Shown piece after piece: positions 4,626-21,661 of a stretch of 21,943 bases of DNA. The notes beneath the pieces were generated by a model. That model was not told the DNA's origin. It saw nothing but the letters and a program-made list of their open reading frames with translations, and did not search any database. The DNA is from Candidatus Hydrogenedentota bacterium. Its GTDB lineage: Bacteria > Hydrogenedentota > Hydrogenedentia > Hydrogenedentales > SLHB01. The stretch covers positions 1-21,943 of the forward strand of contig JACQVH010000215.1 in assembly GCA_016209895.1 (NCBI GenBank), in the 5' to 3' direction. The number at the start of each line of letters is the position of its first letter. The stretch's first letter is position 1. The translations under genes and the position numbers were made by a program.

Positions 4626-4703
4626 AGCGGGAACCTTTCCGGTAGCAACTATCCCTCGTATCTTCATGTTACCACGGGACTTGCACAAGCGTCAAATGAT
4701 TCC

Positions 4704-4732
4704 TTGAAATTGCCGTGGAAGTCCCATAAGAT
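4704..4732 (+). promoter_or_regulatory. Candidate sigma70-type promoter for the helicase gene: TTGAAA (4704-4709), 17 nt spacer, TAAGAT (4727-4732)
   Basis: Hexamers and spacing read from the sequence in the 118-nt divergent intergenic region between the pseudopilin (-) and helicase (+) starts. The -10 lies only about 11 nt from the ATG, so the transcript would be near-leaderless. Confidence 0.3.
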
Positions 4733-4743
4733 CGTGGGCTTCC

Positions 4744-7970: not shown

Positions 7971-7974
7971 TGAA

Positions 7975-8124
7975 GTCAGGAGTCAGGAGCATGCAGACAG
8001 AGTGGTACGAACGTACGAGATATTCCCGACAAGAGTCGCAGCGATGGTTGATGCCCGTACCTGCGGACTTTCAGTTGGTCTCACGTCCTTATTCTGACTC
8101 CTGACTCCTGTCTCCTGACTCCTC
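7975..8124. repeat. Inverted heptamer-repeat arms bracketing a 105-nt unique core. Left arm is (GTCAGGA)x2 at 7976-7989. Right arm is (TCCTGAC)x5 with one TCCTGTC variant at 8092-8126.
   Basis: Read directly. The arms are reverse complements of each other (13/14 match) and are themselves tandem 7-mers. The core contains a small palindrome GTACGAACGTAC (8005-8016). The element lies in the pheA-to-PPIase intergenic gap, ending 20 nt before the GGAGGT RBS of the next gene. Confidence 0.6.
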
Positions 8125-8146
8125 AAGCAACTTACTGGAGGTCAAA

Positions 8147-9197: not shown

Positions 9198-9485
9198 ATG
9201 CGCGATAGAGACAAGGTGATCCGGCTCATTTATGCCGCCGTGGACGAAATCAACGAGACCTTGCCCCAGGAACGGCAAGTCACGAAGTCCGTCGAGACCG
9301 TCCTGTTTGGTCGTTCGAGCACGCTGGAATCGCTCGATTTGGTAGGCCTTATTGTGAGTCTCGAAGAGAAGCTCCAGGAGGAATTCGATACTTCGTTCAC
9401 GCTGGCAGATGAGCGCGCCATGTCGCAGCAGCGCAGTCCGTTCCGCAATATCGGAACGCTCGCGGACTATATTTCGGAATTCTGA
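9198..9485 (+). CDS. Acyl carrier protein (dedicated carrier of the downstream cassette)
   Basis: 95 aa, acidic, four-helix ACP-like layout. Phosphopantetheine attachment context LESLDLVGLIVSLEEKL (DSL-type serine). First gene of a tightly packed five-gene + strand cluster. Confidence 0.7.
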   Translation: MRDRDKVIRLIYAAVDEINETLPQERQVTKSVETVLFGRSSTLESLDLVGLIVSLEEKLQEEFDTSFTLADERAMSQQRSPFRNIGTLADYISEF

Positions 9486-9494
9486 GGCGGTCTT

Positions 9495-10196
9495 ATGGAC
9501 GATGCTCAGACCATGGTGATTACGGGAACCCGAAAGGGAATTGGCCGATATCTGGTCGAGTACTACGCCGCCCGGGGCTGGCAGGTCATCGGGTGCAGCC
9601 GGGAGCCGGTGGATTTTTCGCTGCCGAATTATGAACACTACTGCCTTAGCGTGTCCGATGAGAGCGCCGTTTCGACCATGTTCGCCGCAATTCGGAAGAA
9701 GCACGGTCGGCTCGATGTGCTCATCAACAACGCCGGGATTGCCTCCATGAATCACGTCCTGCTCACTCCAATTCGGACCGTCCAGGATATACTCAACACC
9801 AACGTGGTCGGCACATTCCTATTCTGCCGGGAAGCGGCGAAGCTGATGAGAAAGCACCGCTATGGGCGTATCGTGAACTTCGCCACGGTCGCAACGCCGC
9901 TGAAACTCGAGGGAGAAGCCATGTATGCGGCTTCGAAGGCGGCGGTGGAAAGTTTGACACAAGTGCTTTCCCGGGAACTCGCTGATTTTGGTATCACCGT
10001 CAATGCCGTTGGGCCGACTCCGGTGAAGACCGACCTGATCCGCTCCGTGCCGCAGGAAAAAATGACCGCGCTCATAAACCGCCAGGCGATCCGGCGATAC
10101 GGGGAATTTCAGGACATCTCGAATGCGATTGATTTCTTTATCCGGCCCGAGAGCGATTTCGTCACGGGCCAGATTCTGTACCTCGGAGGCGTCTAG
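9495..10196 (+). CDS. Short-chain dehydrogenase/reductase (FabG-like 3-oxoacyl-ACP reductase family)
   Basis: N-terminal TGTRKGIG Rossmann motif, NNAG motif (VLINNAGIA), catalytic YAASK (Y-x3-K) and PTPVKTD. GAGG RBS upstream; 9 nt after the ACP gene. Confidence 0.85.
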   Translation: MDDAQTMVITGTRKGIGRYLVEYYAARGWQVIGCSREPVDFSLPNYEHYCLSVSDESAVSTMFAAIRKKHGRLDVLINNAGIASMNHVLLTPIRTVQDILNTNVVGTFLFCREAAKLMRKHRYGRIVNFATVATPLKLEGEAMYAASKAAVESLTQVLSRELADFGITVNAVGPTPVKTDLIRSVPQEKMTALINRQAIRRYGEFQDISNAIDFFIRPESDFVTGQILYLGGV

Positions 10197-11539
10197 TGCA
10201 TATAGATTTCCTGCTGAAGGTGTTCGAGGAGGCGGGAGACCACGAGGCCCTGATTTGGAAAGACCAGCCGTATACCTACACGTGGCTGTTGGCACGCATT
10301 GCGGAATGGCGGGACGAAATCTGTCGGCAAAGCGTACCGCCCGGCGCGGTAACGGTTCTCGAAGGGGATTTTTCTCCCAACGCGGTGGCCCTGTTTCTGG
10401 CGCTGGTCGAGTCGGGGTGTATTCTGGTTCCGCTGACCCCGTCAGTGGCCGCGCAGAAACAGGAATTCATGGAGATTGCCCAAGCCGAATTCACATTCGT
10501 GGCCACGGGTGGCGACTCTCTTGAGCTTCGACGTTTGGGTCGCTCCGCCGACCATCCTATTTTCCAGACCTTACGCCAAAAGAACCATCCCGGTCTCGTT
10601 CTGTTCTCATCGGGAAGCACGGGCAAGAGCAAGGGAGCGGTACACGATCTCTCTCACTTGCTCAAGAAATTCCGGACGCGCCGTCACAATCTTCGTACCT
10701 TGACCTTTCTGCTCTTCGATCACATCGGCGGCTTGGATACGCTCTTCTACTCGCTATCCAATGGCAGTTGTGTCATTACGGTCGAGGATCGCAGTCCGGA
10801 CGCGGTCTGCCGCGCCGTCGAGCGTTTCAACGTCGAGGTATTGCCGGTCACACCGACCTTCTTAAATTTGCTGATACTTAGTGAGTCCTTTCAGCGCTTC
10901 TCACTGGCTTCGCTAAAGTACATTACTTACGGCACGGAAGTGATGCCGGAAAGTACGCTCAAAAGGTGCGCTGAACTGTTTCCGCAGGTTACATTGCTTC
11001 AGAAATACGGCACCACCGAGGTTGGTACGCTGCGCTCCAAGTCGAAGAGCTCCGATTCGCTGTGGGTCAAGGTAGGTGGCGAAGGCTATCAGACGCGCGT
11101 GGTGGACGGCATTCTCCAGATTAAGGCGGAATCGGCCATGGTGGGTTACCTCAACGCACCTAGCCCGTTCACCGAGGACGGCTGGTTCATTACCGGCGAT
11201 GCCGTCGAGGTAGACGGAGAGTACCTGCGCTTCTTAGGCCGGAAGACCGAGATCATAAACGTGGGAGGGGAGAAGGTTTATCCGGCGGAAGTGGAGAGCA
11301 TCGTCCAGTCTGTACCGAACGTTTCGGAAGTGACGGTGTACGGCGAAAAGAACCCGCTGGTCGGAAATATCGTGTGCGCGAAGGTGACGCTGCAAGAACC
11401 TGAGGACCCCAAACAATTCGCAGTTCGGCTAAAGAAATTCTGCCGGGAACGGTTGCAGAGTTACAAAGTGCCGGTGAAGGTGGCAGTAGTTGAGACCAAG
11501 CAACACACGGAAAGGTTCAAGAAGGCTCGTCGCGCATGA
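10196..11539 (+). CDS. AMP-dependent synthetase/ligase (short adenylate-forming enzyme, acyl-ACP/CoA ligase-like)
   Basis: GTG start overlaps the SDR stop (TAGTG). AMP-binding signature LFSSGSTGKSKGAV, YGTTEVG motif, hinge GDAVEVDGEYLRFLGRKTEII, C-terminal YKVPVKV. 447 aa, i.e. a compact adenylation enzyme similar in size to DltA-like carrier-protein ligases. Confidence 0.85.
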   Translation: MHIDFLLKVFEEAGDHEALIWKDQPYTYTWLLARIAEWRDEICRQSVPPGAVTVLEGDFSPNAVALFLALVESGCILVPLTPSVAAQKQEFMEIAQAEFTFVATGGDSLELRRLGRSADHPIFQTLRQKNHPGLVLFSSGSTGKSKGAVHDLSHLLKKFRTRRHNLRTLTFLLFDHIGGLDTLFYSLSNGSCVITVEDRSPDAVCRAVERFNVEVLPVTPTFLNLLILSESFQRFSLASLKYITYGTEVMPESTLKRCAELFPQVTLLQKYGTTEVGTLRSKSKSSDSLWVKVGGEGYQTRVVDGILQIKAESAMVGYLNAPSPFTEDGWFITGDAVEVDGEYLRFLGRKTEIINVGGEKVYPAEVESIVQSVPNVSEVTVYGEKNPLVGNIVCAKVTLQEPEDPKQFAVRLKKFCRERLQSYKVPVKVAVVETKQHTERFKKARRA

Positions 11540-12468
11540 GCCGGAAAATCCGCTGGCCCGACGGGAGAGCTTTTGCCTTCACCGTTTTCGATGACACGGA
11601 CCGGGCGACTGCCGAGAATATCCGGGAAGTTTATGCGTTCCTGAAGGACCTCGGGATGTTCACGACGAAGTCGGTCTGGCCCATTCGCGGGAAGGAAACG
11701 CCTCGCATCGGCGGCGCGACGTGTGATGATGGGGATTACTGCGACTTCGTGCGACGCCTGCACGCGGAAGGCTTCGAGATTGGTTTTCATAATGCGACCT
11801 TCCATAGCTCTTGTCGGGAGGACACGATTCGCGGTCTGGACACGTTCGCCCGTTATTTCGGCCACGACCCGGCAACCCATGCCAATCATGCCGATAATGC
11901 GGAGGCGATCTATTGGGGCGAAGATCGCCTGTCCGGAATGTATCGCGCCGGATACAATCTGCTCACTCAGTTTCGGAATCGAGGGCGTTTCCGCGGTCAT
12001 CGGGAAGGCGACCCGTGTTTTTGGGGCGACGTCTGCAAATCCCGGATTAAGTACGTCCGGAACTTTGTCTATTCGGAAATGAATACTCTTCGACTCTGCC
12101 CGTTTATGCCGTATCACGATCCGCAGCGCCCTTACGTCAACTATTGGTTCGCGTCTTCCGAGGGCCCGGAGGTGGGCGCTTTTAATGGCTGTGTCGCTGA
12201 GGCGGCCCAGGACCGCCTCGAAGCCGAAGGTGGCGCCTGCATTATGTACACGCATTTCGCCTACGGTTTTCAGGAAGGACGTGATCTTCAACCGCGCTTC
12301 GAGCGACTCCTGCGCCGCTTGGCCGGTAAGAACGGATGGTTTGTTCCCGTGTCACGGCTATTGGATTTCCTCCTGGAACACAATGGACGCAACGTGATCA
12401 CGGACCGGGAGCGCGCAAGTCTCGAACGGCGCTGGCTTTTCAACAAGGTTTTTAGAGGAACGTCGTAA
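11536..12468 (+). CDS. Polysaccharide deacetylase-like protein (CE4 / NodB-homology fold), putative
   Basis: ATGA overlap with the ligase gene. FAFTVFDDTD resembles NodB motif 1 (TFDD). GFEIGFHNATFHS resembles motif 2 (H-x-x-x-H metal ligands). Length (310 aa) fits the family. Assignment rests on motif resemblance only. Confidence 0.5.
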   Translation: MSRKIRWPDGRAFAFTVFDDTDRATAENIREVYAFLKDLGMFTTKSVWPIRGKETPRIGGATCDDGDYCDFVRRLHAEGFEIGFHNATFHSSCREDTIRGLDTFARYFGHDPATHANHADNAEAIYWGEDRLSGMYRAGYNLLTQFRNRGRFRGHREGDPCFWGDVCKSRIKYVRNFVYSEMNTLRLCPFMPYHDPQRPYVNYWFASSEGPEVGAFNGCVAEAAQDRLEAEGGACIMYTHFAYGFQEGRDLQPRFERLLRRLAGKNGWFVPVSRLLDFLLEHNGRNVITDRERASLERRWLFNKVFRGTS

Positions 12469-12477
12469 TCGCACACT

Positions 12478-13587
12478 ATGGCCTTCAAGATCGTCCCCTA
12501 TACGGATGAACATGTTGCGGCCGTGCGCGAGTTTAACCGGCGGCTGCGTGAAGGCGGGGTCGCTTTTGCGATGCCTGAGTTGCCCGTTCCCGACTGGTTG
12601 CCGATGTTAGCCGATCGGCGAATCTTCCAGGAGTATTACGTGCTCTTGGAGGACACGGTGGTTCGAGGCGGCTACGTGCTGAAGCACCAGGATTTCTTTT
12701 TGTCGGGAGAGGTGCTATCTATTGCAGACTATCGGATGCCCATATCAGAGGGCGTCGTTGACAAGGCATATAATCTGGTCGGCGTTCAACTGCTCACGGA
12801 TGCTTTGAAAAGACAGCCCGTGATGTACGGCCTTGGAATGGGCGGTTTCGACCAACCCATCGCCAAGATGCTGAAGGCCATGGGCTGGACGATGTTCGCC
12901 GTCCCGTTCTTCTTCTGGGTCAATCATCCGTTTCGCTTCTTGCGGAATATCGTGGCGCTGCGCAAGAGCGCGATGCGGCGTTTCCTTCTCGATCTATTGG
13001 CCGTTTCCGGACTGGGTTGGCTCGGAATCAAATTACTCCACTGGTTTCGACGTGAAAAATGGCATGAGTCGTGGGCATGGGAAACGCTCCCTCAGTTCGG
13101 GAGTTGGGCGGATGAATTATGGGAAGCCTGTAAGAACCAACACCCGCTGGCCGCGGTCCGTGACGCGGCGACGCTCAACATCCTATATCCTCCCGAAAAG
13201 AAAGAATTCATTAAGCTGAAGGTGTCCAGCGGAGACCGCGTCGTGGGCTGGGCCGTGCTGCTGAATACGCCCATGATCGGACACAAGCAGTTTGGAAACA
13301 TGCGGGTTGGGACGGTCGTAGACTGCCTTGCCTTGTCGAACCACAAACCGAAAGTAGTGTTCGCCGCGGTGGAGTGCCTGACTGCCGCCAGTGCTGATAT
13401 TGTCATTACCAACCAGTCCGATCAGAACTGGTGCGCCGCATTTCGTCGCACAGGCTTTCTCAGCGGCCCGTCAAACTTCATCTTCGCCGCGTCCAAGAAG
13501 CTCGCCGCGCACTTACAGCCGTTCGATGAGAAAAAGAACTCCATCCATATGACCCGCGGCGACGGCGACGGACCGATACATTTGTGA
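12478..13587 (+). CDS. Hypothetical protein, possibly a FemAB/BioF2-like GNAT-fold acyltransferase
   Basis: 369-aa ORF, 9 nt after the deacetylase-like gene. No SD, but it is the first in-frame ATG after an in-frame stop. Size and position (next to a CE4 deacetylase-like gene) match FemAB-related proteins of PEP-CTERM-type loci. I cannot see an unambiguous motif, so the function is tentative. Confidence 0.4.
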   Translation: MAFKIVPYTDEHVAAVREFNRRLREGGVAFAMPELPVPDWLPMLADRRIFQEYYVLLEDTVVRGGYVLKHQDFFLSGEVLSIADYRMPISEGVVDKAYNLVGVQLLTDALKRQPVMYGLGMGGFDQPIAKMLKAMGWTMFAVPFFFWVNHPFRFLRNIVALRKSAMRRFLLDLLAVSGLGWLGIKLLHWFRREKWHESWAWETLPQFGSWADELWEACKNQHPLAAVRDAATLNILYPPEKKEFIKLKVSSGDRVVGWAVLLNTPMIGHKQFGNMRVGTVVDCLALSNHKPKVVFAAVECLTAASADIVITNQSDQNWCAAFRRTGFLSGPSNFIFAASKKLAAHLQPFDEKKNSIHMTRGDGDGPIHL

Positions 13588-13590
13588 AAT

Positions 13591-13758
13591 GAGCAATGAG
13601 CAACGAGCAATGAGTCACGAGAGACAAGTATCGAGTACCGAGTGACGAGTAACAAGCAATCAGGGACCAAGAACCGGAAACCGGAAGCTCCGAACCAGGG
13701 ACCAGAAACCAGAAGCCAGGGACCATCCACTAGCCACTGACCACTGGTCACTGAACAC
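13591..13758. repeat. Array of 24 phased degenerate heptanucleotide tandem repeats (consensus nAGnnAC; units GAGCAAT, GAGTGAC, CAGGGAC, CAGAAAC, CGGAAAC, TGACCAC ...) filling the entire gap between convergent genes
   Basis: Read directly. From 13591 the sequence parses without slippage into 24 consecutive 7-mers. 21 of the 24 end in C and 19 carry A at position 6. It begins 4 nt after the TGA of the + gene and ends at the stop codon of the - strand Dabb gene (13758-13760). Confidence 0.85.
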
Positions 13759-14168
13759 TACTCTTTCGGCCAGTAGTCGATCACCCAGATTTTCTCGAGA
13801 AACGGTCGGGCCATGGCGACGAAATCCTGGTGGGCTTGGTGGGCGCGGTACGCTTCCATGGATTCGACGTCGTGGAAGGTTAGGAGAAAGCAGTGGGTGA
13901 AGCCTTCAGCGCGGGACTGGGCGTTCACGTCCGTGCCCCATTCGAAATCGCGGATTTCGGCGATCTTAGCCGGTAGTTGGCGAAACGCGTTCTCTATCGT
14001 AGCAATCTGTTCCGGCGACGTGCCCTCTTTGAACTTGAACAGGACCACGTGGCGCAACAGGGAATGATCTTGTGTCGGCGACGTAGCGACGACCGAGCCC
14101 TTGATCGAAATGCAGGCAGGTAACAACAACCCGGTCAAAGCGATTGACAACCACAAACTTCGCTTCAT
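13758..14168 (-). CDS. Dabb-family (stress-responsive dimeric alpha/beta-barrel) protein with lipoprotein-type signal peptide
   Basis: Real gene is the C-terminal 136 codons of ORF 13758..14735: MKRSLWLSIALTGLLLPAC (lipobox LLPAC), then HVVLFKFKEGTSPEQIATIENAFRQL...HQDFVAM, typical of the Dabb/stress-responsive protein fold. Its ATG overlaps the TGA of the upstream membrane-protein gene (ATGA at 14165-14168). The long N-terminal extension in the ORF track is out-of-frame overlap with that gene and was rejected. Confidence 0.7.
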   Translation of the reverse strand: MKRSLWLSIALTGLLLPACISIKGSVVATSPTQDHSLLRHVVLFKFKEGTSPEQIATIENAFRQLPAKIAEIRDFEWGTDVNAQSRAEGFTHCFLLTFHDVESMEAYRAHQAHQDFVAMARPFLEKIWVIDYWPKE

Positions 14169-15106
14169 TGCCGTTCCTCCTTGCTTAGCCGGTTGATTTC
14201 CCGAAAGGCGGGAGACACTTCTTCCAATCGAGATTCGGCAGCCGGGTCCGCGCCTTGGTCCTCGGCGGCGTCGAGTTGATTGATCGCAACCGCCGTGAGG
14301 GCAATCGGATCGAAGACAATCCATTTCACCATGAAGCTCAACACCACGGCGGTGAGAAAAAACACCAACCGCATCGTGCTCCATCCGGTACTTGCCGGCA
14401 AGAACATGGCGATACTTCCGAGGGGAACGAGGAAAAGCACCGTGAGCGGGACCAATAGCGCATAGCCGACGGCGCAAAATAACGCCGCGAGACGTAGCGA
14501 GTCCGATCCGGAATGGGCGTACTTGACCACCGAATCCTTTACGGTAGTGAAAACTTCCCGACTTTCCGTTCGAAACACCTTGGCCAGAATCACGTATGGC
14601 AGGTAAATCAGAGCGCCATTCGCGGCAAGTTTCGCCAGCTTGGGAGAACCGGCAAGCCTCGCGATTGGTACCAGTGACTCCAGGGAGAGTACCGAACGAT
14701 GGGTATCGCGCAGTGCGCGGAGAACGAGGCCACACAGTTGCCCAGCGCCGGTCGCGCTACGGAACCTGTCCGACACACGGGAACGCGCCCAGTTCGGTTC
14801 CGAGACGCCCCACGGCAACTGGCCTTCGTTGAGGATTTCCGTAATCAACGCGAGGTAGCCCAGCTTGATGGATGCGAACGGATCGAATCCGGCGTAGCGC
14901 GCCGCGAGGGGCAGTGCGCTCAAGACTGCGGAGAGAATGAAGAGGAGCAAGCTTGCGCCAAAGCCGAATGCCAGCCCGACGAAGCCGAGGATCATCAAGT
15001 ACGCGATCACACCTGCGCCGACCACGCCGTAAATCCCAGCCCGGTAGATCAAGTACTGCATCGGCTGGAACGCGATCTGCACCACCCGGCCCCAGTTGAC
15101 ATCCAT
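14165..15106 (-). CDS. Hypothetical polytopic integral membrane protein (about 313 aa)
   Basis: ORF 14165..15133. The second ATG (MDVNWGRV.., 15104-15106) is preceded by AAGGAGGACAGGACG, a strong SD at correct spacing. At least 6 hydrophobic helices and an acidic C-terminal tail. Overlaps the start of the Dabb gene by the 4-nt ATGA. Confidence 0.6.
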   Translation of the reverse strand: MDVNWGRVVQIAFQPMQYLIYRAGIYGVVGAGVIAYLMILGFVGLAFGFGASLLLFILSAVLSALPLAARYAGFDPFASIKLGYLALITEILNEGQLPWGVSEPNWARSRVSDRFRSATGAGQLCGLVLRALRDTHRSVLSLESLVPIARLAGSPKLAKLAANGALIYLPYVILAKVFRTESREVFTTVKDSVVKYAHSGSDSLRLAALFCAVGYALLVPLTVLFLVPLGSIAMFLPASTGWSTMRLVFFLTAVVLSFMVKWIVFDPIALTAVAINQLDAAEDQGADPAAESRLEEVSPAFREINRLSKEERQ

Positions 15107-15203
15107 CGTCCTGTCCTCCTTCCAGCACTGCATCCGGCGACCGCACCAACGAGACTATTCTCCGTATTTTCTTCCCCGGAGTCCAACTTTGTGCCAATTG
15201 GGG

Positions 15204-15312
15204 GTAAGGGACGAAAGGGACCCATGTAAGGGACCCAAAGGACTCTGTTCTTCCGGGCACGGAGGAGGAGAAGGACGGCAACGACGCCAAGGACAACGAC
15301 GACACCAGGGAC
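15204..15312. repeat. Cluster of direct repeats of AAGGGAC(C) / AAGGAC / CAGGGACC (at least 7 copies) in the 207-nt gap between the ferredoxin stop and the membrane-protein start
   Basis: Read directly: TAAGGGAC 15205-15212, AAGGGACCC 15215-15223, TAAGGGACCC 15227-15236, AAAGGAC 15237-15243, GAAGGAC 15273-15279, CAAGGAC 15291-15297, CCAGGGACC 15303-15311. The word AGGGACC is also a recurrent unit of the heptad arrays at 13591-13758 and 15675-15765. Confidence 0.45.
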
Positions 15313-15313
15313 C

Positions 15314-15673
15314 TTATGCCGGCGAAGGACGTTCGACAACCGGTGGCGGTGACTGAGTGGTCACGTTTGATGGCTGGCCGTCGAGGGTGGCGATAATTGA
15401 CTCGAGCAGATACTCCAATTCCGCTTCCGATACGTGGCTGAACCAACGGTTTTCTGGGAAGACCATCAGGTTGGGACCATGCTCGCACTTATCCTGGCAG
15501 CCGGACTGGCTCACGCGGATTTTGCTCTGAAGGTTCCGCGCTTTGACCATGCTTTTCAATTTATCGCGGAGTTCTTTGCCGCCTTTATTGGCACAGCATT
15601 CACGCTCGCCCGGCTCGCGCTGGTTGCAACAAACGAAGACGATCTTCTGAAATGGGAGGGCATGTTCTAGCAT
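15314..15673 (-). CDS. Thioredoxin-like [2Fe-2S] ferredoxin family protein
   Basis: 119 aa with the cysteine pattern of thioredoxin-like 2Fe-2S ferredoxins / NuoE-like proteins: IVFVCCNQR...GERECCANKGG...SGCQDKCEHGPNLMVFP. Start ATG at 15671-15673. The upstream 48 nt consist entirely of heptad repeats that supply an AGGAA SD-like sequence. Confidence 0.65.
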   Translation of the reverse strand: MLEHALPFQKIVFVCCNQREPGERECCANKGGKELRDKLKSMVKARNLQSKIRVSQSGCQDKCEHGPNLMVFPENRWFSHVSEAELEYLLESIIATLDGQPSNVTTQSPPPVVERPSPA

Positions 15674-15674
15674 A

Positions 15675-15765
15675 GGTTCCTGGTCCCTGGTTTCTGGTTC
15701 CCAGTTATCGGTTTCCGGTTTTCAGTTACTCGGCATTCGGTACTCGGAACTCGTCACTTGTAGCG
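15675..15765. repeat. Array of about 13 phased heptanucleotide repeats (plus-strand units GGTTCCT, GGTCCCT, GGTTTCT, GGTTTCC, CGGTACT ...), the reverse-complement family of the 13591-13758 array; extends into the last 13 codons of the large minus-strand gene
   Basis: Read directly. The reverse complement gives AGGAACC, AGGGACC, AGAAACC, GGAAACC, AGTAACT, AGTACCG, AGTGACG, the same words found in the array at 13591-13758 but inverted. The stop codon of the large gene (15722-15724) and its C-terminal residues LQVTSSEYRMPSN are encoded by repeat units. Confidence 0.75.
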
Positions 15766-19147: not shown

Positions 19148-19252
19148 ATCCCCAAGGGGAGTCTGCGGTGGCGTGACTCCCCGCCTCCTGGGATCGTGAA
19201 AACTCCCCCGAGGAAAGCACATAATGAGTGCAAACGCTAGGGAGGAGAAACC

Positions 19253-19618
19253 ATGTATTGCCCAAAATGCGGGTCCGAGAACGATGATAATGCCTTTCGC
19301 TGTACCCGGTGCGGAAACATTTTACAGCAGACACAAGGATCTCCAGGCGGACCGCCGCCCAGTATCCCCACGTACTTGGCGCCGGCGATCCTCGTCACCC
19401 TGTTCTGTTGCTTGCCTTTCGGCATCGTGGCTATCGTGTATGCCGCGCAGGTGAGCGGCAGGATGGCGGGGGGCGACTATATCGGAGCCGCCGAATTATC
19501 GCGGAAGGCAAAAATGTGGTGTTGGGTGTCATTTGGGATCGGACTGGCGTTCATTGTCCTCTACGTTGTGTTCATCGTCGCCGTGGAGGTACTGGGCGGA
19601 TTTTCGCAACAAATGTGA
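19253..19618 (+). CDS. CD225/dispanin-family small membrane protein with N-terminal zinc-ribbon
   Basis: GGGAGGAG RBS 6 nt upstream. N-terminal CPKCGSEN...CTRCGN zinc ribbon, Pro/Gly linker, then the two-helix CD225 signature (LAPAILVTLFCCLPFGIVAIVYAAQV...WCWVSFGIGLAFIVLYVVFIV). Confidence 0.75.
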   Translation: MYCPKCGSENDDNAFRCTRCGNILQQTQGSPGGPPPSIPTYLAPAILVTLFCCLPFGIVAIVYAAQVSGRMAGGDYIGAAELSRKAKMWCWVSFGIGLAFIVLYVVFIVAVEVLGGFSQQM

Positions 19619-20109: not shown

Positions 20110-20688
20110 ATGACAAAAGCGTGTGCGCTCAATCCGCAAGCAATTGATTCCAACACGTATCCGGAGACGCTGCCCAACGTCTGCGTCGAAGGGCCGCGTG
20201 GACCCGTCTGCGCATGGTTTTCCGAGCGTGGCTTATCCCGACTCCACCTGTGTGGGCTGGACCTCTGTACCCTGTGGAATGCCGCCGCAATAGGCATGTA
20301 TCGGCGGCGGCATCATCAGCCAACGAGGAACGAAGCAGACCCGCGGGCCGCACGCTTGGCGGCAGCCTTGAGACGGTACCTCCAGGGAGAACCGGAAGAC
20401 TTCTCCGACGTCGAGATCGACCTAAGCGCCGGCACCGAGTTTCAGCAGGCGGTCTGGGAGGCGGCGCGCAAAGTCGCGTGGGGTAGACTATCCTCTTACG
20501 GAGACTTGGCCCGTCTGATAGGCCGTACCACGGATACGGCGCGCGCCGTAGGCCAGGCGTTGGGCGCAAACCCCATCGCTATCGTCGTTCCCTGTCACCG
20601 GTTCGTCGCGTCAGACGGCTCCCTCGGCGGCTTCTCCGGCGGACTCGAATGGAAGCGGGCGCTGCTGCGGCTGGAAGGACACTTCTGA
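20110..20688 (+). CDS. ogt: Methylated-DNA--protein-cysteine methyltransferase (O6-alkylguanine-DNA alkyltransferase)
   Basis: Active-site motif IVVPCHRFV (PCHR), helix-turn-helix region (YGDLARLIGRTTDTARAVGQALGANP) and C-terminal GGLEWKRALLRLEG. ATG at 20110 is 9 nt after a GAAAGG-type RBS. The ORF-track start at 20104 is a TTG two codons upstream. Confidence 0.8.
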   Translation: MTKACALNPQAIDSNTYPETLPNVCVEGPRGPVCAWFSERGLSRLHLCGLDLCTLWNAAAIGMYRRRHHQPTRNEADPRAARLAAALRRYLQGEPEDFSDVEIDLSAGTEFQQAVWEAARKVAWGRLSSYGDLARLIGRTTDTARAVGQALGANPIAIVVPCHRFVASDGSLGGFSGGLEWKRALLRLEGHF

Positions 20689-20775
20689 GTGCGGAATGTG
20701 GATTGTGGATTGCGGAATGAACCAATTACGGATTGTGGAATGTTGAACGCCAAGAGCCAAAGGCCAAAGGAACCG
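20689..20775. repeat. Phased heptanucleotide repeat array immediately after the ogt stop: GTGCGGA, ATGTGGA, TTGTGGA, TTGCGGA ... then TTGTGGA, ATGTTGA, ACGCCAA, GAGCCAA, AGGCCAA, AGGAACC
   Basis: Read directly. Begins 1 nt after the TGA of ogt. 7-nt register with one 2-nt slip around 20724-20732. Unit family (nTGnGGA, nnGCCAA) differs from the 13591 and 15675 arrays. Confidence 0.65.
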
Positions 20776-20842
20776 ACTTATGGTTTCTCGCGTTGCGTGA
20801 ATCGGTCAAACCGAGACTGAGCGCGACATCCCCATTTGCCCA

Positions 20843-20858
20843 GTCAAGCAAGCTTGAC
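20843..20858. terminator. Palindromic hairpin GTCAAGC-AA-GCTTGAC between convergent ogt and esterase genes
   Basis: 7-bp perfect arms read directly, located mid-way in the 220-nt convergent intergenic gap. No U-tract. Could equally be a protein-binding palindrome. Confidence 0.3.
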
Positions 20859-20873
20859 CGTGGCGCCCGATCA

Positions 20874-20908
20874 TCGTCGTTTAGAATTTAGAATCTGCAA
20901 TTTGGAAT
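20874..20908. repeat. Short heptanucleotide repeat array TCGTCGT, TTAGAAT, TTAGAAT, CTGCAAT, TTGGAAT abutting the stop codon of the minus-strand esterase gene
   Basis: Read directly; five consecutive 7-mers with consensus TTnGAAT ending at the TGA (20909-20911, minus strand) of the hydrolase gene. Confidence 0.5.
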
Positions 20909-21661
20909 TCACTTCTTCTGTTTTAGCAGCCACTGGATGGTCTTCGCATCGCCATAGGCGTCGTCCCAGGAATTGTGCTTTGCCTTGGGGATTTCCGTGT
21001 ATTTGATCTGCCCGCCCGCCTTCTTCACCGCCTCGACCATTTTGCGGGACTCCGCGGGCTTGACGACGTCGTCCTCGGCGCCGTGAAACGCCCAGATCGG
21101 CAAGGCCGCAAGTGCTGTGGCGTCCTCCTCTTTTCCGCCGCCACAGATCGGCATTAACGCGGCGTATACGTCCGTGCGCTTTGCCCCCAACATCCACGTG
21201 GCGTAGCCACCGAGGGAAATTCCGGTCAGGTAGATGCGGTTCGGGTCAATGTTGTACTCCGCGCGGGTTTGTTCGAGCGCTTTCTCGATATGCGATACGG
21301 CGCGGTCCCAGAAACCCAACCCCGGGCACTGCGGAAAGACCACCACGCACGGGAATCGCTCCGGATGCTTGCGGATGGCGTGACCGATCCCCACGTCGGT
21401 CGGTAGCAGCCCATCGTTGCCGCGTTCCCCGATCCCGTGCAGAAACACGATCAACGGCCACCCCTGCGCCCGGTCATAGTTGCGCGGCACATAGACGGCA
21501 TAGGCCCGTTCCTTGCCGTCTGCTACCATGGTCTTATTGAGGAAGCCCGTCACAATCCCTTGGCTCTCTGCCGCTTGGCCGCTGATTGACTTCGTCGTAG
21601 CACAACCGTTGCTCAACATCACGACCGCAAACACAGCCACGAAGGTCCATTTCACGTTCAT
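20909..21661 (-). CDS. Alpha/beta-hydrolase family esterase (phospholipase/carboxylesterase-like) lipoprotein
   Basis: Signal peptide with lipobox (VVMLSNGCATT). Esterase core motifs: LIVFLHGIGERG (oxyanion region), nucleophile elbow GISLGG, and C-terminal FHGAEDDVV / His region (KAKHNSWDD). Confidence 0.8.
   Translation of the reverse strand: MNVKWTFVAVFAVVMLSNGCATTKSISGQAAESQGIVTGFLNKTMVADGKERAYAVYVPRNYDRAQGWPLIVFLHGIGERGNDGLLPTDVGIGHAIRKHPERFPCVVVFPQCPGLGFWDRAVSHIEKALEQTRAEYNIDPNRIYLTGISLGGYATWMLGAKRTDVYAALMPICGGGKEEDATALAALPIWAFHGAEDDVVKPAESRKMVEAVKKAGGQIKYTEIPKAKHNSWDDAYGDAKTIQWLLKQKK

Follow-up and report, generated by a model that had tools for sequence, protein, structure and literature searches.

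The window analysed here is an entire contig of 21,943 bp from a metagenome-assembled genome (MAG) that NCBI labels ‘Candidatus Hydrogenedentes bacterium’, and it raises the question of why the spacer between two convergent genes should consist of a single run of seven-nucleotide units. The stretch (positions 13591–13758) separates the hypothetical gene HY706_16270 from a gene for a Dabb (stress-responsive A/B barrel) protein. A first-pass annotation, made from the letters of the contig, had described it as 24 degenerate heptamers and had considered a terminator or insulator, a binding array and the footprint of a repeat-generating mechanism as explanations. Our analysis suggests that the stretch is probably an aged heptanucleotide simple-sequence repeat (SSR) of the ‘long SSR’ class, similar to the short tandemly repeated repetitive (STRR) sequences of cyanobacteria, which grew in place and has been tolerated in a non-coding gap. 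This reading draws on the directly observed periodicity, multiplicity, restriction to non-coding DNA, distance decay between units and sporadic lineage distribution of such arrays. From the same patterns we infer slippage as the generator, and the predicted folds are the source of any RNA-level role discussed below.

Periodicity and register of the array

The stretch comprises exactly 24 consecutive heptamers (168 nt) with the consensus NAGNNAC, and the original parse, in which the array fills the gap between both stop codons, was reproduced exactly. Relative to the 170-nt convergent gap, the array is 3 nt short on the side of the upstream gene and 0 nt short on the Dabb side, where its last base (13758) is also the first base of the complement of the Dabb stop codon (13758–13760). 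Identity at lag 7 was 0.658, with values of 0.59, 0.57 and 0.55 at lags 14, 21 and 28, while each lag between 1 and 30 that is not a multiple of 7 gave 0.18–0.31. Shuffled versions of the array (n = 2000) had a mean lag-7 identity of 0.285 ± 0.034 and a maximum of 0.40, so the outcome under which the first-pass annotation would have abandoned the array, a lack of enrichment over shuffled controls, is excluded.

Stacking the 24 units yielded 5.29 bits of information, compared with 1.48 ± 0.19 bits in shuffles. The bias that had been noted in the first-pass annotation, with position 7 mostly C and position 6 mostly A, applies to 21 and 20 of the 24 units respectively, and is accompanied by A at position 2 (18/24) and G at position 3 (19/24). 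Sixteen of the 20 AC dinucleotides in the array lie in one register, and Tandem Repeats Finder (TRF) recorded 0% indels in every sub-array. The plus strand is composed of 38% A, 10% T and 26% each of C and G, and its longest run of G does not exceed three. Head-to-tail 7-nt copies beyond chance, the property that defines a heptanucleotide long SSR, are therefore present in this array.

The 7-nt units follow one another head to tail with no spacers, which rules out a clustered regularly interspaced short palindromic repeat (CRISPR) array, where repeats of ∼23–50 nt alternate with unique spacers of like length, and agrees with the earlier statement to that effect. It had also been stated correctly that the array is not coding: it lies in a convergent gap, and 7 is not a multiple of 3. 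A three-frame stop trap behind the genes was likewise considered, and none was seen in the array.

Source and assembly

The nearest relatives of the PheA protein encoded in the window (66–74% identity) are all Hydrogenedentes. When a repetitive region is found in a metagenome-assembled contig, there is reason to suspect an assembly or synthetic artefact, and absence of the array from independent data had been named in advance as grounds for dropping it. Logan contig SRR12113390_7846984 (L029, run SRR12113390), assembled independently, corresponds to positions 13644–15488 of the window with 0 mismatches. Because of this match, the right-hand 115 nt of the array (13644–13758) are not the product of one assembler. 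The left 53 nt have no independent support because the Logan contig stops at 13644, within the array, a break that could itself be taken as a sign of an artefact. Similar arrays also occur in unrelated assemblies of other projects, and the array here lies away from the contig ends and abuts two intact open reading frames (ORFs). Taken together, an artefact appears extremely improbable.

The break within L029, a short-read assembly, is an observation in its own right. Heptamer arrays may systematically fragment MAGs and so be under-represented in them.

Other period-7 arrays on the contig

The array is not a singular feature of the contig. TRF and a lag scan identified further period-7 arrays at 7974–7989, 8094–8123, 15675–15765, 20693–20770 and 20880–20909, giving at least six on the contig with the target included, all of them in four gaps (Table 1). 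When lags of 4–12 were scanned over the whole window, lag 7 accounted for 365 nt of arrays and lag 9 for 46 nt, and the remaining lags yielded none. According to a gene map built from ORFs and Pfam, which leaves ∼8% of the contig non-coding, all arrays fall in the non-coding fraction except for 13 codons of an ORF with a TIG domain. They occupy both convergent gaps and two tandem gaps, while the divergent gaps at 4689–4743 and 19223–19308 hold none. Coding DNA would exclude such arrays because their 7-nt step is not a multiple of 3. Multiple arrays in non-coding DNA, as found in genomes with heptanucleotide long SSRs, are thus a property of this contig.

The arrays in the gaps lie flush with stop codons, and their units are unrelated from gap to gap (AGTCAGG, CGGAATG/TGGATTG, CCAAAGG and TTTAGAA). 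Since each array has its own unit and only the period is common, a sequence-independent generating process is a better account than an array of binding sites. The first-pass annotation had offered a binding array for a protein or small RNA, and this idea is disfavoured by the finding of six arrays on one contig with no common motif. Examples would be a CsrA-type sponge or a Rho loading (Rho utilisation, rut) site. The A, G, A and C at positions 2, 3, 6 and 7 are kept in 18–21 of the 24 units and the plus strand carries five GGA motifs, as tandem sites for one binder would suggest, and binding by S1, Csp or CsrA has been proposed for the TAACTGA repeats of other bacteria (MacGregor 2015, PMC4679880). 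No single binder explains the period of arrays with unrelated units, however, and the array is absent from relatives. The five GGA motifs lie outside hairpin loops, with no Rfam match and no conservation, contrary to what is expected of a CsrA/RsmA-sponging RNA. A rut site was also rejected, because the plus strand is unstructured but has C equal to G rather than being C-rich and G-poor over ∼70–80 nt. Tandem sites for one protein or small RNA are consequently a very unlikely explanation.

In scans for Rfam families, tRNA and tmRNA, nothing reached the gathering threshold, and under permissive settings the sole hit was a chance miRNA match inside a gene. A phage database had no match.

Table 1. 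Positions of the repeat arrays, predicted hairpins and flanking genes discussed in the text.
Feature	Position	Strand	Description
Target array	13591–13758		24 in-register heptamers; occupies the convergent gap
Sub-block 1	13591–13660	+	10 units of GAGCAAY / GAGTNAC type; TRF 13588–13614 and 13598–13653
Sub-block 2	13661–13723	+	9 units of CAGGGAC / CAGAAAC / CGGAAAC type
Sub-block 3	13724–13758	+	5 units of YNNNCAC (CCACTGR) type; partly complementary to sub-block 2
Predicted G·U-rich hairpin	13694–13757	−	∼21 pairs including 6 G·U; immediately 3′ of the Dabb stop in minus-strand RNA
Small terminator-like hairpin, tail TTCTTGGTCC	13674–13693	−	Inside the array, after the long minus-strand hairpin
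AGTCAGG array	7971–8003	+	Begins directly after the pheA stop; left arm of an inverted pair
CTGACTC array (reverse complement of AGTCAGG)	8090–8126	+	Right arm; ends ∼20 nt before the start of the peptidyl-prolyl isomerase (PPIase) gene
Second NAGNNAC array	15675–15765	−	Sub-family order as in the target: GAGT, then CGGAAAC, then CAGGGAC
CGGAATG / TGGATTG and CCAAAGG arrays	20689–20775	+	Begin 2 nt after the stop of an MGMT-like gene
TTTAGAA array	20880–20909	+	Ends at the stop of a minus-strand hydrolase gene
Out-of-phase GGGAC/CCAGGGACC motifs and period-9/18 repeat	15200–15313		Neighbouring gap; likely a decayed relative of the same repeat family
HY706_16270, 369 aa, hypothetical (NCBI)	12478–13587	+	TGA stop 13585–13587; no Pfam family
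Dabb (stress-responsive A/B barrel) gene	13758–14168	−	T-rich strand of the array is its 3′ untranslated region (UTR)

Probable growth of the array

Neighbouring units of the target are the most alike. The mean Hamming distance was 2.39 between adjacent units, 3.0 at a separation of three units and ∼4.0 at 13–14 units, and when the order of the units was permuted the adjacent distance rose to 3.45 ± 0.21, with none of 10,000 permutations as low as observed. Sub-block 2 additionally contains a 28-nt higher-order repeat (TRF 13661–13725, 2.3 copies). The decay with distance and the 28-nt repeat fit a pattern of local duplication followed by mutation. Because the three sub-families have a common register and a common A-C at positions 6–7, we conclude that they descend from one another and are not separate arrays that came to lie side by side. 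The blockwise drift along the array had been taken as evidence that it is not a simple microsatellite, but neighbours that are most alike, a steady decay and a 28-nt repeat are the look of an aged heptanucleotide SSR.

We therefore consider the following course likely to apply, as far as it can be read from the order of the units. The array would have expanded at its present site through replication slippage or unequal exchange, 7 nt at a time but with at least one step of 28 nt, and the copies would later have diverged by point mutation, so that the unit drifts along the array. As each array has its own unit, what the lineage specifies would be the 7-nt step rather than a sequence motif. Mismatch repair in Escherichia coli corrects loops of up to ∼4 nt, a limit that could explain how SSRs whose units are 5 nt or longer evade it.

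Loss of phase occurs elsewhere on the contig, as is evident from a 9-nt unit, that is, one phase slip, in the array at 20693 and from out-of-phase motifs in the gap at 15134–15313. In the latter, GGGAC/CCAGGGACC motifs are clustered out of phase, and a period-9/18 repeat (15271–15312) directly follows the stop of a DUF1636-like gene. The contig has nine AGGGAC sites, all but one of them in the three gaps between 13.6 and 15.7 kb. For CCAGGGACC, the one-mismatch count equals the shuffle expectation, leaving only its clustering in three neighbouring gaps as a point of note.

Distribution among relatives and in other lineages

The order uvrD-pheA-PPIase is kept in four Hydrogenedentes loci (L022, L024, L026 and L027), which enables a direct comparison of one array-bearing gap. 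The pheA-PPIase gap measures 34–41 nt in three of the syntenic loci and 268 nt, with no heptamers, in L026. Here it measures 176 nt, and the extra DNA is an inverted pair of arrays with its spacer. Across the Hydrogenedentes relatives only two small arrays were found, amounting to 92 nt in ∼105 kb, in comparison with 365 nt in 21.9 kb here. Since the relatives are largely without them, the arrays are best regarded as recent and lineage-specific and not as conserved elements. Of the explanations first offered, the footprint of a lineage-specific repeat-generating mechanism is supported, in that only period 7 is enriched in the window and the arrays are dense here and in some Planctomycetota loci yet nearly absent from Hydrogenedentes relatives.

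The picture outside the phylum comes from Planctomycetota loci met by chance and from two loci each of Acidobacteriota and Gemmatimonadota. Arrays of period 7 only were present in four Planctomycetota loci (L002, L005, L007 and L009), and no period-7 arrays were seen in two Acidobacteriota loci (L003 and L006). Among the Gemmatimonadota, L001 held one short array (59 nt) and L008 none. Further afield, blastn retrieved a perfect (GAGCAAC)x11 array from the Pseudomonas aeruginosa plasmid pPALA50 (L030 1497–1573, NZ_CP111035.1), where a hypothetical gene and a Fic-family gene converge on an unannotated gap that contains it. The second unit of the target has the same sequence as its unit, and we regard it as a young counterpart that happens to share that unit.

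Inverted pairs of arrays

Several arrays occur as inverted pairs. In the pheA-PPIase gap (7971–8146), two inverted arrays flank a spacer of ∼90 nt, and the Shine-Dalgarno (SD) sequence and start of the PPIase gene are intact beyond the right arm. The arms at 7974–8001 and 8093–8120 are 79% complementary over 28 nt, and the fold of the whole gap was predicted at −67.6 kcal/mol (z −2.9). The second NAGNNAC array, at 15675, is 70% complementary to 13617–13703 over 87 nt without gaps. Furthermore, the order of sub-families in the two NAGNNAC arrays is collinear (58/84 matches, against 51.5 ± 2.5 when permuted; p ∼0.014), and both run in one orientation and order, leading away from the stop codon of the respective upstream gene. 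The second array starts within the 13 final codons of the 1166-aa ORF with the TIG domain and ends 1 nt before the ATG of a DUF1636-like gene, for which the only SD-like AGGA lies in the last unit of the array (CCAGGAA).

In Thermoguttaceae and Planctomycetaceae, three loci (L007 7347–7700, L005 17868–17985 and L009 13120–13285) have the order stop, array, loop, inverted array, SD/start, which is the layout of the pheA-PPIase gap in the window. The unit in L007, AGTCAGA, is identical to the AGTCAGG of the window in 6/7 positions. In a Planctomycetaceae MAG (CAWGNG010000034.1, L002 15745–19383), a 1212-aa ORF for a DnaE-type DNA polymerase III (Pol III) alpha subunit spans four heptamer-array clusters in frame. 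Three of the four clusters are inverted pairs, and two correspond to insertions of ∼60 aa relative to the E. coli Pol III alpha subunit.

Hairpin-forming extragenic repeats at gene ends are familiar from the repetitive extragenic palindromic (REP) sequences and bacterial interspersed mosaic elements (BIMEs) and from the Rickettsia palindromic elements (RPEs), the last of which also occur in frame inside ORFs. The REP and RPE families each have a conserved sequence and owe their origin to dedicated transposases. The in-frame arrays of L002 resemble RPEs in this respect. It is thus conceivable that the arrays are arms of palindromic, insertion-prone elements like these or like miniature inverted-repeat transposable elements (MITEs), and that the target and the 15675 array are two arms, or two copies, of one 3′ module. 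The inverted pairs at 7974/8093, at 13617/15675 and at the ends of 20686–20912 fit such elements, as do the same architecture in L002, L005, L007 and L009, the ∼140 nt by which the pheA-PPIase gap exceeds that of relatives, the palindromes inside the DnaE-type ORF, the near-identity of the L007 unit, and the common sub-family order of two NAGNNAC arrays with an ORF lacking homologues (ORFan) between them. Against this, each pair has its own unit, whereas MITE and REP families have a conserved sequence, which is not found here. No target-site duplication was seen at 7971/8126, and no transposase or REP-associated tyrosine transposase (RAYT)-like gene is present on the contig. The target is also a single long direct array and not a local palindrome: the inverted arms able to pair are those at 7974/8093 and the local pair at 13694–13757 (z −4 to −6), and the first 100 nt of the target are a plain direct array. 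Finally, the order of variants in pair c of L002 is not mirrored between its arms, which indicates that arms evolve by slippage after any insertion. On balance we think palindromic elements unlikely to be the source of the arrays, and an aged SSR remains the preferred reading.

Predicted RNA structure

The array is the entire spacer between convergent genes and hence the 3′ UTR of both, with its A-rich strand serving HY706_16270. Transcribed from the plus strand, it was predicted to be unstructured (z −1.15), and no intrinsic terminator, a G+C-rich hairpin with a U-tract directly behind it, was identified on that strand of the array, of which only 10% is T. The fold of the whole array as minus-strand RNA reached −56.8 kcal/mol (z −2.1). 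The duplex between the arms in sub-blocks 2 and 3 was predicted at −28.4 kcal/mol (z −4.2) in minus-strand RNA and at −19.7 kcal/mol in plus-strand RNA, and in the best ungapped register the minus-strand arms form 16 Watson-Crick pairs, 6 G·U and 0 A·C. The resulting long hairpin is followed on the minus strand by a 6-bp terminator-like hairpin with the U-rich tail UUCUUGGU. Canonical terminators are not enriched on the contig (22, against 17.1 ± 4.7 expected), so the arrays would supply the only hairpins at these gene ends. A similar one-strand preference was predicted for 20686–20912, the ends of which pair over ∼30 positions in plus-strand RNA only (−23.5 versus −8.7 kcal/mol). There, the array at 20880–20909 pairs with 20686–20722, with 10 G·U pairs versus 1 A·C.

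These predictions bear on whether selection acts on the array as an RNA element of the 3′ UTRs, either a bidirectional terminator or insulator or a stabilising hairpin, with the 7-nt period itself under selection. As the array is flush to both stop codons, any 3′-end signal must lie inside it. The minus-strand hairpin directly after the Dabb stop has a G·U:A·C ratio of 6:0, the ends of 20686–20912 also pair on one strand only, the better-pairing strand is the sense strand in L007 and L009, no phase-breaking indel interrupts the 24 units, and the two NAGNNAC arrays have the same orientation and order relative to their upstream genes. The array is not conserved, however: syntenic relatives are without arrays, and no orthologue of the target gap is available for comparison. 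Its plus strand is unstructured and too poor in T for a U-tract, five of the nine inverted pairs have no strand preference, and no Rfam family matches. RNA-level selection on the arrays is possible but unproven, since C-to-T mutation biased towards one strand would produce a G·U asymmetry of the same kind. We accordingly rate a selected RNA element as improbable, a little below palindromic elements. The array may act as the terminator or insulator first suggested for it, an idea to which the minus-strand hairpin and the terminator-like site lend weak support.

Should an aged SSR have acquired a role at all, it would most likely be structural, as a spacer and 3′-end hairpin that separates convergent transcripts in the manner of REP sequences. 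A spacer or 3′-hairpin role between convergent genes is plausible given the predicted structures.

Observations that slippage leaves unexplained

Several observations weigh against array growth by slippage as the whole explanation. Neighbouring units differ by ∼34%, yet no phase-breaking indel has accumulated over 24 units, and despite the 9-nt unit at 20693 this is somewhat more orderly than neutral decay predicts. Slippage alone explains neither the frequent inverted pairs nor the common sub-family order of two arrays 1.9 kb apart. Slippage is moreover deduced from the pattern of the sequence and not from length variation in multiples of 7, and any RNA role of the array would similarly be a deduction from structure prediction, in which the z-scores of the whole array are modest (−1.15 on the plus strand and −2.1 on the minus strand) and nine inverted pairs drawn from five sequences do not agree on which strand gives the better arm pairing.

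The inverted pairs, the collinear partner and the missing indels are unexplained by slippage and so leave room for a more novel repeat-building process. Such a process would be independent of sequence, adding DNA in 7-nt steps and copying arrays onto the opposite arm in the manner of self-extending hairpins, and the two NAGNNAC arrays would be copies of one module rather than independent microsatellites. It might combine slippage with quasi-palindrome template switching, or might depend on a dedicated enzyme, and it would be active sporadically in Hydrogenedentota and Planctomycetota. Modules made of an array, a loop and an inverted array would arise between stop codons and the ribosome-binding site that follows, and some would even enter an essential polymerase gene in frame. 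We put this forward as a speculative possibility with rather low odds, and retain an aged, slippage-grown SSR as the probable identity of the array.

Flanking genes and neighbourhood

HY706_16270 had been called ‘FemAB-like’ in the first-pass annotation, a label that received no Pfam support even at E-values of up to 5. The 369-aa protein belongs to no Pfam family and has more than 2000 homologues across phyla, and the closest relatives of its gene are 41–55% identical and not syntenic. In relatives, an orthologue of the target gap could not be found. The gene is the last of five same-strand genes (9198–13587) that form an apparent operon, preceded by a 95-aa ORF the size of an acyl carrier protein, a short-chain dehydrogenase, an AMP-binding ligase and a 310-aa protein with no Pfam family.

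On the other side, the Dabb gene is adjoined by HY706_16280 (14165–15133, minus strand), which encodes a predicted membrane protein of 322 aa. Among 5.8 billion proteins this ORFan had no homologue except itself. The two NAGNNAC arrays enclose this gene along with the Dabb gene and the weak DUF1636-like gene. Exact searches with three proteins of the window gave no match.

Significance of the arrays

Arrays make up ∼2% of the DNA of this contig and occur in four of the six larger gaps located behind genes. The age of the target is of value in itself, as its internal gradient records how such arrays grow. In practical terms, arrays of this kind break short-read assemblies, as with the Logan contig that ends inside one, and create spurious ORFs and altered C-termini, as with the TIG-domain ORF that ends inside another. 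For uncultivated lineages they might be of use as strain markers. Provided that the inverted-pair architecture turns out to be under selection, the arrays would count as functional counterparts of REP hairpins, arising with no conserved sequence. A 7-nt step that reflects the replisome or unrepaired 7-nt loops would make their sporadic distribution a comparative handle on the mechanism.

Comparison with known heptamer repeats

The target is an aged member of the known but poorly understood heptamer SSRs. The papers searched yielded no published report of such repeats in Hydrogenedentes and nothing relevant on heptamer repeats in Planctomycetes or Hydrogenedentes, and the lineages they name for long SSRs include neither Hydrogenedentota nor Planctomycetota. 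The STRR units of cyanobacteria are CCCCAGT, TTGGTCA and CAACAGT. Like the arrays described here, the STRR sequences (Mazel 1990) are dispersed intergenic tandem heptamers with several unit families per genome. According to the account in PMC4692102, cyanobacterial heptamers were first reported in Calothrix. The host here belongs instead to the Hydrogenedentes and the units are of NAGNNAC type, so that the array is no member of STRR1-3 by sequence. The resemblance to STRR-type repeats that was suggested at the outset is therefore borne out by class, with the units outside the STRR families. The novelty implied by the mention of a high-GC, non-cyanobacterial context was overstated, since an excess of heptamer SSRs has been documented in Xanthomonas, Burkholderia, Chloroflexus and Beggiatoaceae (PMC4692102, PMC4679880, PMC6749651), including a GATAGRA heptamer in Chloroflexus (PMC6749651).

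A close match is to the long SSRs, among which, as summarised in two later papers, heptanucleotide units are the most abundant class in most genomes, with a phylogenetically scattered distribution and a proposed origin in polymerase slippage over a contact of ∼7 nt (Mrázek 2007, via PMC4679880, PMC4692102). The target has in common with long SSRs as they are summarised there (Mrázek, Guo & Shah 2007) its tandem 7-nt units, non-coding location, sporadic occurrence, favoured period of 7 and proposed slippage. Those repeats are described as mostly near-perfect, whereas the target has 66% lag-7 identity, in register, with three sub-families and a 28-nt repeat.

In Xanthomonas and Nostoc, GGGAATC and GGGGAYT repeats respectively are of no known function, and some of them form inverted pairs located in convergent gaps (Rehm et al. 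2015, PMC4692102). Like the arrays on this contig they are intergenic; they contain 2–26 units and vary in length and sequence between close relatives, but they are G-rich, capable of forming G-quadruplexes and dominated by one unit per genome, in contrast to the many unrelated units here (PMC4692102). The TAACTGA repeats of marine Beggiatoaceae, Cyanobacteria and Bacteroidetes lie next to start codons (MacGregor 2015, PMC4679880), at a distance of a few nucleotides, which is likewise the position of the 15675 array. They consist of a single conserved unit in 2–6 copies upstream of genes, while the arrays of this contig have diverse units in up to 24 copies and are found mainly at 3′ ends. In relation to REP/BIME and RPE sequences, the contig arrays have only a period in common with one another, and the analogy to 3′ hairpins is plausible (REP review PMC3733652).

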